From Pedosphaera sp. (GTDB taxonomy: Bacteria; Verrucomicrobiota; Verrucomicrobiia; Limisphaerales; SIBH01), in the NCBI GenBank assembly GCA_031414955.1, contig JANOQV010000259.1:1-23198 (forward strand): 23,198 nt of DNA. Direction: 5' to 3'. Of this stretch, positions 16,845 to 23,198 are shown one piece after another; position 1 is the stretch's first letter, and the number at the start of each line of letters is the position of its first letter. The notes under the pieces were generated by a model. It worked only from the letters and a program-made list of their open reading frames with translations. It did no database searches and was not told the DNA's origin. The position numbers and the translations under genes were made by a program.

Positions 16845-16914
16845 AATTCCTTTCGGGTGATTGCGGCGGATGATAGCGGGCGGCACGCAGAGGGGAAGCG
16901 CGATTCTCTGGAAC

Positions 16915-17014
16915 GACGACACTGGAAAGTGTCGTCACCTGCCGACAAGAATGTCGGCGCTACAAACGTAACGCCGGCTTTCCAGCCGGCAGGTGGCGAG
17001 ACTTTCCAGTCTCG
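16915..17014. repeat. REP/BIME-like cluster: two back-to-back GTAG/GTAA-led units, each with two hairpins
   Basis: Minus-strand unit GTAGCGCCGACATTCTTGTCGGC-AGGT-GACGACACTTTCCAGTGTCGTC; plus-strand unit GTAACGCCGGCTTTCCAGCCGGC-AGGT-GGCGAGACTTTCCAGTCTCG. They are separated by AAAC; 16921-16944 is inverted to 16987-17010 with 2 mismatches. Confidence 0.8.
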
Positions 17015-17106
17015 TGTCGGTGGCTCCTCGAAGCCGCACCCTCTCACAATTCACAGCCAACTCCCGCATTGCGCCACCGAATCCTTTCCCCCAAATTCCG
17101 CGCCCT

Positions 17107-20100
17107 ATGTCGAGCCGGAAGCAGTATCCGTTCAATCTCATCGAGCCGAAGTGGCAGCAGTTCTGGGAGGAACAGCAGTCCTTCCGCGCGTTCAATCCCG
17201 GCGAAGTGCTGCCGGCGGAACATCCCTTCGCGCAACGTCACGGACTTGCGGGCAAGAAAGTTTCCGCCGCCGATTTGCCGCCGAAGTTCTATGTGCTCGA
17301 CATGTTCCCCTACCCTTCCGGCGCGGGACTGCACGTCGGGCATCCCGAAGGCTACACGGCCACGGACATTCTCGCGCGCTACAAGCGCGCCGCTGGTTCG
17401 CATGTGCTGCATCCGATGGGCTGGGACGCCTTCGGCCTGCCCGCCGAGCAATACGCCATCAAGACCGGCCAGCATCCGCGCGCGACGACCGAGGCGAACA
17501 TCGCGAACTTCACCAAGCAGATCAAAAGCCTCGGCTTCAGCTACGACTGGTCGCGCGAGGTGGACACCACCGATCCGAAATACTTCCGCTGGACGCAGTG
17601 GATTTTCCTGAAGCTCTACAACTCGTGGTTCAACCCGGAGACGAACAAGGCCGAGCCGATTGAGACCCTGAAGTTTCCAGGGGAGCTGGAATTGCCGGGC
17701 GCACAGGTAGGGCGCGGTGTCCTCACCGCGCCGCGCCTCGAATCGGAGGAGCGCCCCGGAACTGCCAACGCCTCACCCCGGCGCGCTGAGACAGCGACGC
17801 CCTACCAACTCGAAGACAAACGCCGCGCCTATCGCGACTCCAAGCGTCTCGCGTTCAGCAGCGAAGCCCCAGTGAACTGGTGTCCGGAACTCGGCACCGT
17901 GCTGGCCAACGAGGAAGTCATCGACGGCAAGAGCGAAGTGGGCGGCTTCCCCGTGGTGCGCCGGCCCATGCGCCAATGGATGCTCCGCATCACCGCCTAC
18001 GCCGAGAAACTGCTCGACGATCTCAACACGATCGACTGGAGCGACTCGCTCAAGGAGATGCAGCGGAACTGGATTGGGAAGAGCGAAGGGGCGGAGGTGG
18101 ATTTTCAGATTGGTGGCCGTGCGGACAAGATTCGCGTTTTCACGACGCGCCCCGATACGCTGTTCGGTGCGACCTACATGGTGTTGTCGCCGGAGCACAA
18201 GTTGGTCGCGGAAATCACGACGGCCGAGCAGCGCGAAGCCGTGAAGCAGTATCAGCAGTTCGCCGCCGGCAAGAGCGATCTCGAACGCACGGAACTCGCG
18301 AAGGAGAAGACCGGTGTCTTCACCGGTTCGTATGCCATCAATCCGGTGAACGGGGAGAAGATGCCCATCTGGATAGCTGACTACGTGCTCGCGAGCTACG
18401 GCACAGGTGCGATCATGGCAGTTCCATCTCATGATGCGCGCGACATGGAGTTCGCGCTCAAGTTCGACATCACAACTCAGAACGTGGTGCTGCCGCCAGA
18501 CGCTTGGTTGCGCGAGCGAGTGAGTTCCACTTTTGCAGATAAGACGATTGAAGAAATCCGCGACGTTTACAAAACCACGAATGCCTACTTCGGACAGGAA
18601 GCATTCTGTGAAACTGGAACTGCGATCAATTCAGCCAATCCTGAAATCTCCCTCAACGGCCTCCCTACCGCCGAAGCCAAAGCGAAAATCACCGCCTGGC
18701 TCGAAGCGAAGAGCCTCGGCAAGAAGACCATCAACTACAAGCTGCGCGACTGGCTCTTCAGCCGGCAGCGTTACTGGGGCGAGCCGTTCCCCATCGTGTG
18801 GAAGAAGGACGCGAATGGGAACGCGTATCACGAGGCGCTGCCGGAGAGCGCGCTGCCGTTGCTGCCGCCCGCGCTGGACGATTACAAGCCCACGCCCGAC
18901 GGCCAACCGCCGCTCGCCCGCGCGCAGGACTGGGTGAACCGGCCCGACGGCTCCGTGCGCGAAACGAACACCATGCCGCAGTGGGCGGGCAGTTGCTGGT
19001 ATTACCTGCGCTATCTCGATGCGGGGAATGATGGCACCTTTTGTTCCGCCGAGGCTGAGGAGTATTGGATGGGCGCGCCAAGCGTCGCGCAACTCGGTTT
19101 CCACGAGTGGCAGACGCGGCTCAAGGCGCTTTATGCCTTCGCTCTTAACAATCCGGAGAACCGGAAGGATTTCGTCAGCTACGACGTGGTCAGCCCGGCG
19201 GAAGCGGATTTTCTCGCCGGGAAAACAGGGCTGCATCTCGCAGGATACCGGCGGATGATCGACAACTTTGCCATCCGTCACGTCATGAACCAGCATGGTG
19301 ATGCGGAGAAGGAGCGCCAGCGCGGGCTGCTCCCAGTCAGCTTTGATGACCTGCTCCAGATTCCAGCCATCATCCACTCGGCGGATGAAGTGCGCTCCGG
19401 CGGCAAGACCGCAACGAACCTGGATCTGATCCTCTACACAAAGCGCGTTAATGGATGGCTGTACTATTTCGAAGAAGTACGGACGGCGAATGATTTGTTG
19501 GCGGCCAAGACGTTGTACAAAAAACCGGCGACGGCGAGTCATGCCGGTGAAGGCCTTGCTCAAACGCCCGAAGCGCTCCGTCGCACTGGGGAGAATCTAG
19601 CGAACACAGGGCCGCGTGGCAAGGTCACGCCCGGCGTGGACCTCTACGTTGGCGGCACCGAGCACGCCGTGCTGCACCTGCTCTACGCGCGCTTCTGGCA
19701 CAAGGTGCTGTTCGACCTCGGCTATGTCTCCACGCCCGAGCCGTTCTTCAAGCTCGTGAACCAGGGACTCATCCTCGGCGAGGACGGCCAGAAGATGTCC
19801 AAGTCGCGCGGCAACACGGTCAACCCCGACGACATCCTCGTGGAATTCGGCGCGGATGCCTTCCGCCTTTACGAAATGTTCATGGGGCCGCTGGAGATGG
19901 TGAAGCCGTGGAACACGAAGGGCGTGGAAGGCGTGTATCGTTTCCTCGGCCGCGTCTGGCGTTTGTTCGTCGATGAAGCGAGCGAGACGGAGTTCGAGCA
20001 GACGCAGACCGCCACCGATCCGGCGCAGCAGCGCGAGTTGCTGAAGTTGATCAAGCTCCACGCCGGCATCAAGGACGCCGAGGCGACGAAGGAACAGCTC

Positions 20101-20616
20101 AAGGCACTGCACGCCTGCATCAAGAAGGTGACGGAAGATCTCGACGGCCTGCGCTTCAACACCGCCATCTCGGCCATGATGGTCTTCGCCAACGACGCCA
20201 TGAACTGGGAAACGAAGCCGGTCTCCGTGCTGCGCGAGTTCCTGATTCTGCTCCAGCCTTTCGCCCCGCACATCGCGGAGGAGTTGTGGGAGAAATTGTC
20301 CAAAGTCCAAAGTACAAAGTCCAAAGTCACGGACGACGGTGCGGCGACCTTGGACCTTGGACTTTGGACTTTGGACTTGTCCTACCAGCCCTGGCCGAAG
20401 CATGACCCCGCCCTGCTCGTCGAAGACACGCTGGAGATTCCCGTGCAGGTGAACGGCAAGCTCCGCGACGTAATCCGCGTGGCGGCGACGGCAACGCAGC
20501 CGGAGATCGAAGCCCTCGCGCTCGCTTCGGAGAAGGCGCAGCAGTTCATGGGCGGCAAGGCGGTGAAGAAAATCATCGTGGTACCCAAGAAGCTGGTGAA
20601 CATCGTGGTGACCTGA
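17107..20616 (+). CDS. leuS: Leucine--tRNA ligase (1169 aa) with multiple in-frame insertions
   Basis: [18 protein letters not shown] (HIGH), [14 protein letters not shown]1 editing motifs FTTRPDT and [60 protein letters not shown] at 17107. Confidence 0.97.
17706..17806. repeat. GTAG-type REP doublet inserted in frame within leuS
   Basis: GGTAGGGCGCGGTGTCCTCACCGCGCCG...CGGCGCGCTGAGACAGCGACGCCCTACC; terminal inverted GGTAGGGCG/CGCCCTACC; GTAG to CTAC spans 99 bp (33 codons). Confidence 0.82.
19525..19589. ncRNA. Candidate structured RNA element at the 3' end of the inserted nuclease domain
   Basis: Closing stem GCGACGG (19528-34) / CCGTCGC (19578-84) encloses GAGT-CAT-GCC-ggtgaa-GGC-CTT-GCTC and a CGC-ccgaa-GCG hairpin, a possible three-way junction. 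Folded by eye only. Confidence 0.4.
19594..19622 (-). promoter_or_regulatory. Putative antisense sigma70 promoter inside leuS at the right boundary of the nuclease insert
   Basis: The minus strand reads TTGCCA-N17-TAGATT (-35 at 19622-19617, -10 at 19599-19594), pointing into the structured element. Confidence 0.5.
20298..20376. repeat. Inverted heptamer tandem repeats forming a long hairpin, in frame in leuS
   Basis: (GTCCAAA)x4 (one copy GTACAAA) + GTC, a 17-nt loop, then GAC + (C/TTTGGAC)x4; translates as [26 protein letters not shown]. Confidence 0.88.
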
Positions 20617-22544: not shown

Positions 22545-23140
22545 GATCTCCTTGCCCCGACGCTCCCGCACCGTCTCGCCCCTCGCGGATGATTCCTCCC
22601 CCGCCCGCGTCGATTTCCCATTCCAACCTGTCATCACCGCCCGTCTTTCCGTCATCCTGCCGGCCGCCGGATTGGATTCTCCGGCCCCGGCTCGATTGGC
22701 CGCCCCGGCGAATTGGATTCCCTCACGAACCCGTGACCCACTCTCATCGCCCCGTCATCAACTTCGCCCGCCGGGTTGATTTCGCCCCCCTCCAGGTTGA
22801 TTTCCCGCCCGCCCAGGTTGAATTCGCCGCCGCCGGAGTCATCACTTCAGGTCGCAGATTGACTTCGTCGGTGTCCCGATTGCATTCGGCCCCGCGCAGA
22901 TGGATTTCGCCCCTCCGGTCAGTCACCAGCTCCGGCTCCAGATTGATTCCGACCCCGTCCGGGGTAATCCTTCCCGTGGCCCGATTGAATTCGCCGGGCC
23001 GGGAGGTCATCATTTGCCCTCGCCGAGTTGATTTCGCCGGTCGCCGGGTTGATTTTTCCAGAATCAGAGTTGATTGGGCCCTCTCCAGAGTTGAATCTTC
23101 CACTCCCAGAGTCGATTTCGGCACAAAACCTGTCGATCAC
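22545..23140. repeat. Degenerate 21-nt tandem repeat array (core GTTGATTTC)
   Basis: TTGATT/TTGAAT/TCGATT-like cores at 22776, 22797, 22818, 22859, 22880, 22901, 22943, 22985, 23028, 23049, 23070, 23091, 23112 and 23133, a 21-nt phase with two 1-nt slips. More degenerate copies extend left to about 22545. Confidence 0.8.
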
Positions 23141-23198
23141 CGTACGGAAATCATTCCGTCAAGGCGTTCTGTTCCTCTTGGATTCCTGCATCTTTTAC

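Follow-up and report, generated by a model that had tools for sequence, protein, structure and literature searches.

A predicted antisense RNA behind the PBECR3 domain of a bacterial leucyl-tRNA synthetase and behind related phage BECR domains

Predicted RNase domains of the BECR families, which occur in phage proteins, are followed by a predicted short structured RNA gene on the opposite strand. This conserved element is real, widespread and apparently undescribed. Domain and RNA together probably form a portable RNase-plus-RNA-antitoxin cassette (probability roughly 0.6), in which the RNA would bind and block the domain that it accompanies. The case described first lies in a window of 23,198 nucleotides, the whole stretch of Pedosphaera sp. 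DNA analysed here, where the cassette sits inside the gene for leucyl-tRNA synthetase (LeuRS). It is not special to this gene, and the same design reaches the PBECR1 and MuF_C families.

The cassette within leuS

The host gene leuS (17,107–20,616, plus strand) encodes a protein of 1169 aa with the Pfam tRNA-synt_1, editing and anticodon domains, and tblastn of the genome found no other copy. The cassette, which consists of a linker, a PBECR3 domain, an RNA gene and a promoter, is inserted in frame at 19,075–19,623 (plus strand), in a variable loop of LeuRS between YWMG and VTPGVDL. Its domain (19,096–19,524, plus strand) matches Pfam PF18812 (PBECR3) with an E value of 3.7e-19 and 69 bits against a cut-off of 30, and this is the sole Pfam family assigned to it at E≤1. 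The PBECR identity proposed by an earlier reading of the sequence alone (the sequence-only reading) was thus correct. In the available text of the paper that described them, PBECR active sites are defined by a His that lies within the N-terminal helix together with a Thr or Ser that is C-terminal (PMC5512222). The domain has both, and the predicted catalytic residues are H62 (19,279–19,281), H67 (19,294–19,296) and T139 (19,510–19,512). Both His and the Thr are present in all 18 LeuRS inserts. The conserved arginine R129 is kept in 11 of the 18 and changed in the other 7, so some inserts may be inactive yet retain their RNA.

The domain was modelled with a pLDDT of 95.6. Structure comparison returned BECR toxins as the best matches, led by BrnT (Z 6.8, rmsd 2.8, 74 residues aligned), with CdiA-CT, RelE and colicin D below it and all matches under Z 8; Foldseek with the same model gave no match at E≤0.001. 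PBECR3 is a predicted colicin D-like RNase domain, its RNase activity being a prediction of the literature. No family among the PADLOC 2.0 anti-phage profiles matched at E≤1. A model of the whole LeuRS reached a pTM of 0.34, with the domain at about 90 and the tail behind it below 50; parts of the LeuRS core also fell below 50, so this model is uninformative on disorder or fit of the tail.

Behind the domain, a small RNA of about 69 nt with a three-way junction is predicted on the minus strand from 19,587 to 19,519, its start taken from promoter spacing and its end from a U run. It is matched by a covariance model at 19,506–19,591 (minus strand), the window itself being among the training sequences. 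The closing stem P1 pairs a 5′ arm at 19,578–19,584 with a 3′ arm at 19,528–19,534. Between them lie a conserved small hairpin at 19,564–19,575 (CG-Y-UUCGG-R-CG-U in the RNA) and the P2 arm at 19,536–19,561, which has a covarying base stem, a conserved internal loop and a variable tip. The predicted 3′ end is a run of six U at 19,519–19,524, which on the other strand is a stretch of A that encodes the final lysines of the domain. The promoter has a −10 hexamer TAGATT at 19,594–19,599 and a −35 hexamer TTGCCA at 19,617–19,622, both on the minus strand, and 7 nt downstream of the −10 lies 19,587, an A on that strand.

The sequence-only reading had placed the fold and the promoter, with 17 nt between its hexamers and a start at about 19,587, exactly where they were found. 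The minimum-free-energy fold of the sense strand of 19,519–19,587 is its structure (stem 19,528–19,534/19,578–19,584, arm 19,536–19,561, hairpin 19,565–19,575). That reading is corrected on one point, in that the evidence described below favours the minus-strand copy of the fold, rather than the sense copy, as the functional RNA. An alternative minus-strand hairpin at 19,521–19,546, directly before the U run, excludes the three-way fold and is possibly a terminator conformation.

Taken singly, this sequence is at chance. Its fold scores z from +0.43 to −0.78 against shuffles for most cuts (the bare 57-nt core reaches −1.51), and 1 promoter-like site was found where 0.5 are expected in 3 kb, so the significance of fold and promoter comes from homologues only. 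A scan of the window against Rfam gave no credible match. Two RNA contig sets match 4–5% of words, and 19,052–19,623 lies outside their cover, so they are uninformative on strand.

Several other elements were seen around the cassette. Within leuS there are in-frame extras, which comprise a REP-like palindrome of the GTAG type, heptamer repeats in inverted orientation and, in the editing domain, an insert richer in AT, with positions given as 17,707–17,806, 20,300–20,380 and about 18,490–18,660. A long palindrome upstream of leuS (16,909–17,029) has a weak Rfam microRNA match and is probably a REP-like repeat. Degenerate repeats at the end of the window, at about 22,700–23,198, read as RRVDF-like peptides.

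Conservation, structure and strand of the RNA

PBECR3 loci were gathered from genome searches, viral contigs, annotated records, a protein-anchored metagenome pattern and a motif pattern. A profile anchored 79 domains (5 without an anchor were dropped), and removal of short tails and near-duplicates left 62 loci, 3 of which had been found by the motif itself. Because the loci are related to one another, p values from them are overstated. The hairpin motif occurs within one edit in 44 of the 62 non-redundant tails, or in 41 of 59 once the three motif-found loci are removed, compared to 1/62 inside the domains, 6/620 shuffles and 0/62 reverse complements.

The same DNA is read in all three frames, as TSET/TPEA, NVRN-type and RPKR-type peptides among the protein matches, and it is also found after stop codons. 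The TPEA/TSET tails that the sequence-only reading mentioned are real, and they are one of three translations of one nucleotide element. Its view that the peptide is read-through agrees with six pairs of LeuRS inserts, in which the uncorrected proportions of synonymous and nonsynonymous differences (pS and pN) are 0.20 and 0.19 in the tail, 0.69 and 0.27 in the domain, and 0.54 and 0.08 in LeuRS. These comparisons support selection on the nucleotides of the tail and not on its peptide.

Used alone, the 17-mer PBECR3 motif gave 21 viral loci, of which 3 have a PBECR3 domain and 1 a domain remnant, the rest apparently being chance. A strict window-like pattern had 0 matches in viral sequences, and a weak blastn match in the same genome (C132) proved to be coding sequence of an unrelated gene. 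The PBECR3 motif was absent behind LPD3 domains (0/3) and from the PBECR3 tail of a Helicobacter pylori phage protein (L033). Variants of the element were also seen. Six PBECR3 genes (L026, L098, L100, L122, L128 and L011) are followed by a closed multibranch element with a different inner sequence and by a reverse promoter-like site. Seven further loci (L079–L081, L090, L091, L097 and L127) have an RNA variant whose small hairpin contains a long insert, together with a TAnnTTTG-type reverse promoter and a separate terminator.

A covariance model was built from 32 sequences, and 61 matches, weak ones included, were aligned by fitting them to it. In this alignment covariation is 0.447, compared to 0.159 when shuffled and at most 0.204 when slid. 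P1 is paired in 83% of cells with two-sided changes at all 7 pairs, and the third pair of the small hairpin covaries as U-A, C-G and G-C. In 19 RNAs from outside LeuRS that were not among the training sequences, P1 is 84% paired compared to 49% after permutation. Both the MAFFT and the model alignments misregister P2 (57% paired), so P2 was tested separately from anchors; each half formed 5.1 bp with its own partner compared to 3.6 bp with a swapped one, and 0 of 2000 permutations reached as high. The conserved motif and the covariation that the sequence-only reading proposed to look for are thus present among homologues.

A search with the RNA model gave one strong match in the organism's own genome. 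Across 151 genomes it gave 15 places at E<1e-4, of which 12 adjoin PBECR3; the other three are an RNA-only leuS, a place without a domain and a probable chance match. Ten weaker matches looked like chance. In the RNA-only leuS (L146:1501–1580, genome G545) the RNA and the −35 of its promoter are kept and the domain is gone. Behind a phage protease-like gene (L053:637–728), RNA and promoter remain with only the last residues of the domain, and at L147 the RNA match has no neighbouring domain. A viral protein (L199) contains PBECR3 twice, and a separate RNA and promoter accompany each of the two domains; the second of these RNAs is a held-out match of the model. None of 20 PBECR1 and PBECR3 loci matched Rfam at E≤2.

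The promoter is the first indication of strand. Sites were scored with a hand-entered sigma-70 matrix. The motif occurs within two edits in 50 tails, of which 4 were left out; among the other 46, 36 have a reverse promoter at p≤0.05, with a median score of 8.8 on the reverse strand compared to 0.6 on the other. The −10 ends 13–28 nt before the small hairpin. Regardless of the motif, a reverse promoter is present in 36 of the 62 tails (20/44 outside LeuRS), with 26 below threshold, compared to 4 of 60 control windows 300 nt further on; conservation of the reverse −35 and −10 had also been proposed beforehand as a check. Several AT-rich metagenome loci have a TAnnTTTG box in place of the sigma-70 promoter. 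A box of this form is the Bacteroidetes promoter consensus.

Pairing and termination point the same way. In a strand-neutral search for stems, G-U to A-C pairs stood at 21:7 on the antisense strand (p 0.006). The antisense strand also folds better in 41 of 46 tails, which base composition may partly explain. In 26 of the 54 RNAs that were aligned, a U run is found no more than 14 nt from P1, and six loci in which the gene ends at a stop codon (L081, L090, L094, L105, L112 and L127) have separate antisense hairpin-plus-U terminators. Since promoter, wobble bias and terminators all indicate the antisense strand, a cis target in the mRNA, which the sequence-only reading had offered as one option, is the less likely of its two roles for the RNA. 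It is also very unlikely that the element acts as sense-strand RNA or DNA (as a structure in the mRNA that the nascent domain binds or cuts, or as a recombination site that folds and mobilizes the cassette, with the promoter incidental), for although the sense strand folds into the mirror structure, cassettes appear to move between leuS alleles and the LeuRS loop also gathers miniature repeats, the promoter is enriched on the antisense strand only, elements are placed after stop codons and terminators, and no recombinase was noted nearby.

Distribution among hosts and BECR families

The domain, RNA and promoter occur together in LeuRS, in phage portal proteins, in giant polyvalent proteins and in stand-alone genes, as expected of a unit that travels whole, and the hosts of PBECR3 are mostly virion proteins. 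Of 401 genomes from the order, 24 have PBECR3, and in 20 of those it occupies the same LeuRS loop. At 28 other LeuRS loci (L164–L192 without L184) the loop holds short filler only, often heptamer repeats or palindromes. A quick tree divides the LeuRS-borne domains into three groups, all present in the family of the window, and a single origin is possible.

Three close relatives have flanks 89–95% identical to the window and inserts only 32–42% identical. In a tree, cassette-bearing leuS alleles stand beside empty ones with strong support, although the bootstrap is unsettled. This suggests that the cassette has been repeatedly gained or replaced in leuS; fast change plus repeated loss is a possible alternative history. 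Insertion into housekeeping genes may not be limited to leuS. In a genome of the same genus (G007), a PBECR1 cassette together with its RNA and promoter is inserted in frame in a gene (L251:144–3305, minus strand) that, from its motifs, appears to be mutS. A glycosyltransferase family 2 protein (P0034) was seen to carry an internal PBECR3 domain and a TSET tail.

The design extends to other BECR families. A reverse promoter was found behind 20 of 29 MuF_C domains (one further MuF_C locus being too short) and 5 of 7 PBECR1 domains, compared to 2 of 38 non-BECR domains (ART-PolyVal 1/20, other polyvalent domains 1/18); behind LPD3 it was found in 0 of 3. The PBECR1 RNA is an antisense three-way structure with reverse promoter and U run, unlike the PBECR3 RNA in sequence (L193 at about aa 1953 of its ORF, L202 with three copies, L214–L216 and L218–L220). 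In MuF_C the predicted RNA is a long hairpin, whose 7-nt loop is conserved and whose closing pairs covary (L221–L250, L283–L362). When 8 MuF_C RNAs were folded jointly with RNAalifold, the 4-bp loop stem was all that was recovered. In 11 of the 29 MuF_C loci the −35 shows the same spacing, and a recurring GLQLP-type peptide is read-through of this RNA.

A 15-mer of the MuF_C loop alone, searched in viral contigs, led to at least 116 loci, of which 80 were retrieved. Removal of redundancy left 42, and these include 29 with a MuF_C-like domain upstream and 27 with a reverse promoter. Gene F of phage Mu is described as an inactive PBECR in the available text of PMC5512222, and neither such a promoter nor the motif was found behind this one domain.

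Comparison of these loci shows the predicted antisense design to be common to PBECR3, PBECR1 and MuF_C and specific to BECR domains. It also shows that each family has its own RNA, with one RNA per domain copy. Reverse promoters with folded stretches were also seen behind a domain of no assigned family (L208, at about aa 2082 of its ORF) and behind PBECR1/DUF3519 in the H. pylori phage protein (L033, at about aa 1113).

Possible roles of the RNA

The comparison of loci shows a common layout. At 50–190 nt behind a BECR-family domain whose predicted catalytic residues are intact stands a convergent promoter of host type, which points into a short, conserved fold with a U run at its end; fold and loop sequences are specific to the domain family. 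In the favoured reading, this promoter would yield a constitutive RNA of about 70 nt (in the window, the 69-nt RNA from 19,587), which would bind its cognate domain and block the RNase inside the DNA-bearing cell. For virion proteins (portal, MuF and polyvalent proteins), the producing cell would be protected, while in the next cell the protein would arrive with no newly made RNA. Since the RNA gene occupies the opposite strand and can be translated as a junk linker, the unit can fit any reading frame, and it could also enter permissive loops of housekeeping genes such as that of LeuRS. In leuS it is probably a tolerated passenger, repeatedly gained and lost, with the potential to kill the cell or halt its growth once host transcription ceases, in the manner of abortive infection.

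The antitoxin reading is preferred because it explains the family-specific conserved loops, one RNA per domain, RNA that outlives its domain, an intact domain in an essential gene and the lack of RNA behind an inactive one. That the RNA binds and neutralizes the protein is suggested by the family-specific conservation. Some observations do not fit as easily, namely the 26 of 62 tails below the promoter threshold, the close U run in only 26 of 54 RNAs, the R129-changed inserts that keep their RNA, the one RNA (L147) without a domain, the absence of the PBECR3 motif behind LPD3 and at L033, and the chance-level fold of the single sequence.

It is unlikely that the RNA is instead a cofactor, scaffold or cargo, in which case domain and RNA would make up one ribonucleoprotein, to be packaged or to act together, such as an RNA-activated or RNA-steered RNase or a tRNA-like decoy. 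The conserved loops imply recognition by the protein and leave the sign of the effect unstated; moreover, the 7-bp closing stem and two arms bear a loose likeness to tRNA, R129-changed inserts keep their RNA and the host proteins are mostly virion proteins. However, an active complex would be poorly tolerated within LeuRS, and the inactive domain of Mu, a single case, has no RNA. Guide and tRNA roles were considered and set aside; there is no long unpaired variable segment to serve as a guide, and the likeness to tRNA is loose.

Type I toxin-antitoxin systems offer another model, with convergent antisense examples in txpA/RatA, bsrG/SR4 and SymE/SymR; their toxin is a small stand-alone gene, and their kissing loops have a YUNR U-turn. 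By this model, which is rather improbable here, the RNA would pair with the 3′ flank of the domain mRNA and cause decay or a block of translation, to damp leaky expression in lysogens. The predicted convergent promoter, its conservation and a putative antisense RNA overlapping the toxin transcript are the type I pattern, the RNA overlaps the mRNA in most loci so that base pairing is possible, and loops with UUCG or UUGG fit a YUNR U-turn. On the other hand, cis-antisense pairing needs no conserved sequence, and these RNAs have a conserved, covarying, family-specific structure with loops shared across distant loci. Such pairing would also silence essential leuS, and at L105 and L112 a two-way hairpin lies between the stop codon and the RNA, so the overlap may be small or absent. 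The putative toxin, too, is different, being a 140-aa domain that in most cases is part of a large protein (LeuRS, portal or polyvalent).

Type III systems (ToxIN, AbiQ, CptIN and TenpIN) and AbiF/AbiFr resemble the cassette in combining a predicted RNase with a cis-encoded, structured, family-specific RNA. In the available text of the reports, AbiF is neutralized through direct RNA binding (10.1101/2025.04.15.648962, PMC12737573), and a type III antitoxin is an upstream repeat array co-transcribed with its toxin (10.1101/2025.04.15.648962). In contrast, the PBECR3 RNA is single, downstream and antisense, has its own promoter and often lies inside coding sequence. It has no Rfam match to a described antitoxin family, and the protein is of a predicted BECR fold and not of the ToxN/AbiQ or AbiF (HEPN) families. 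The cassette would thus probably work like type III and is laid out like type I, and belongs to neither.

The same domain families, hosts and active site were described for polyvalent phage proteins by Iyer et al. 2017 (PMC5512222). The main text of that paper contains no antisense, noncoding or small RNA, and its available text proposes no self-protection for PBECR domains and mentions no PBECR insertion in LeuRS or MutS. The word "antisense" is absent from the available text of both that paper and a second BECR paper (10.64898/2026.08.28.747851). For MuF polymorphic toxins, the available text of PMC5576092 states that phage head proteins need self-protection encoded just downstream; there it is a small immunity ORF on the same strand, whereas here it would be an antisense RNA. 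No description of such RNAs was found in the literature searched, most subscription papers and supplements being outside its scope.

A more general view, which is doubtful and put forward tentatively, is that these are domain-level ribonucleoprotein modules. Each phage BECR RNase family would have a co-evolved antisense RNA in a coding linker, the RNase domains would be shuffled through virion and housekeeping proteins with an RNA that, besides inhibiting them, travels with or programs them, and the LeuRS fusion would be a domesticated tRNA-cutting sensor of host transcription shut-off.

If the antitoxin reading is true, it would answer how a cell makes polyvalent proteins that contain several RNase domains and no immunity genes. 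It would bring at least three RNA families that Rfam lacks, each of them the counterpart of one protein family (with MuF_C loci outside the Rfam scan). An antitoxin hidden antisense inside coding sequence is a layout that current finders miss, and the "disordered linkers" after PBECR domains would be explained as translated RNA genes. Finally, compact RNA-switchable RNases would become available, with a domain of 430 bp and an RNA of 70 nt.
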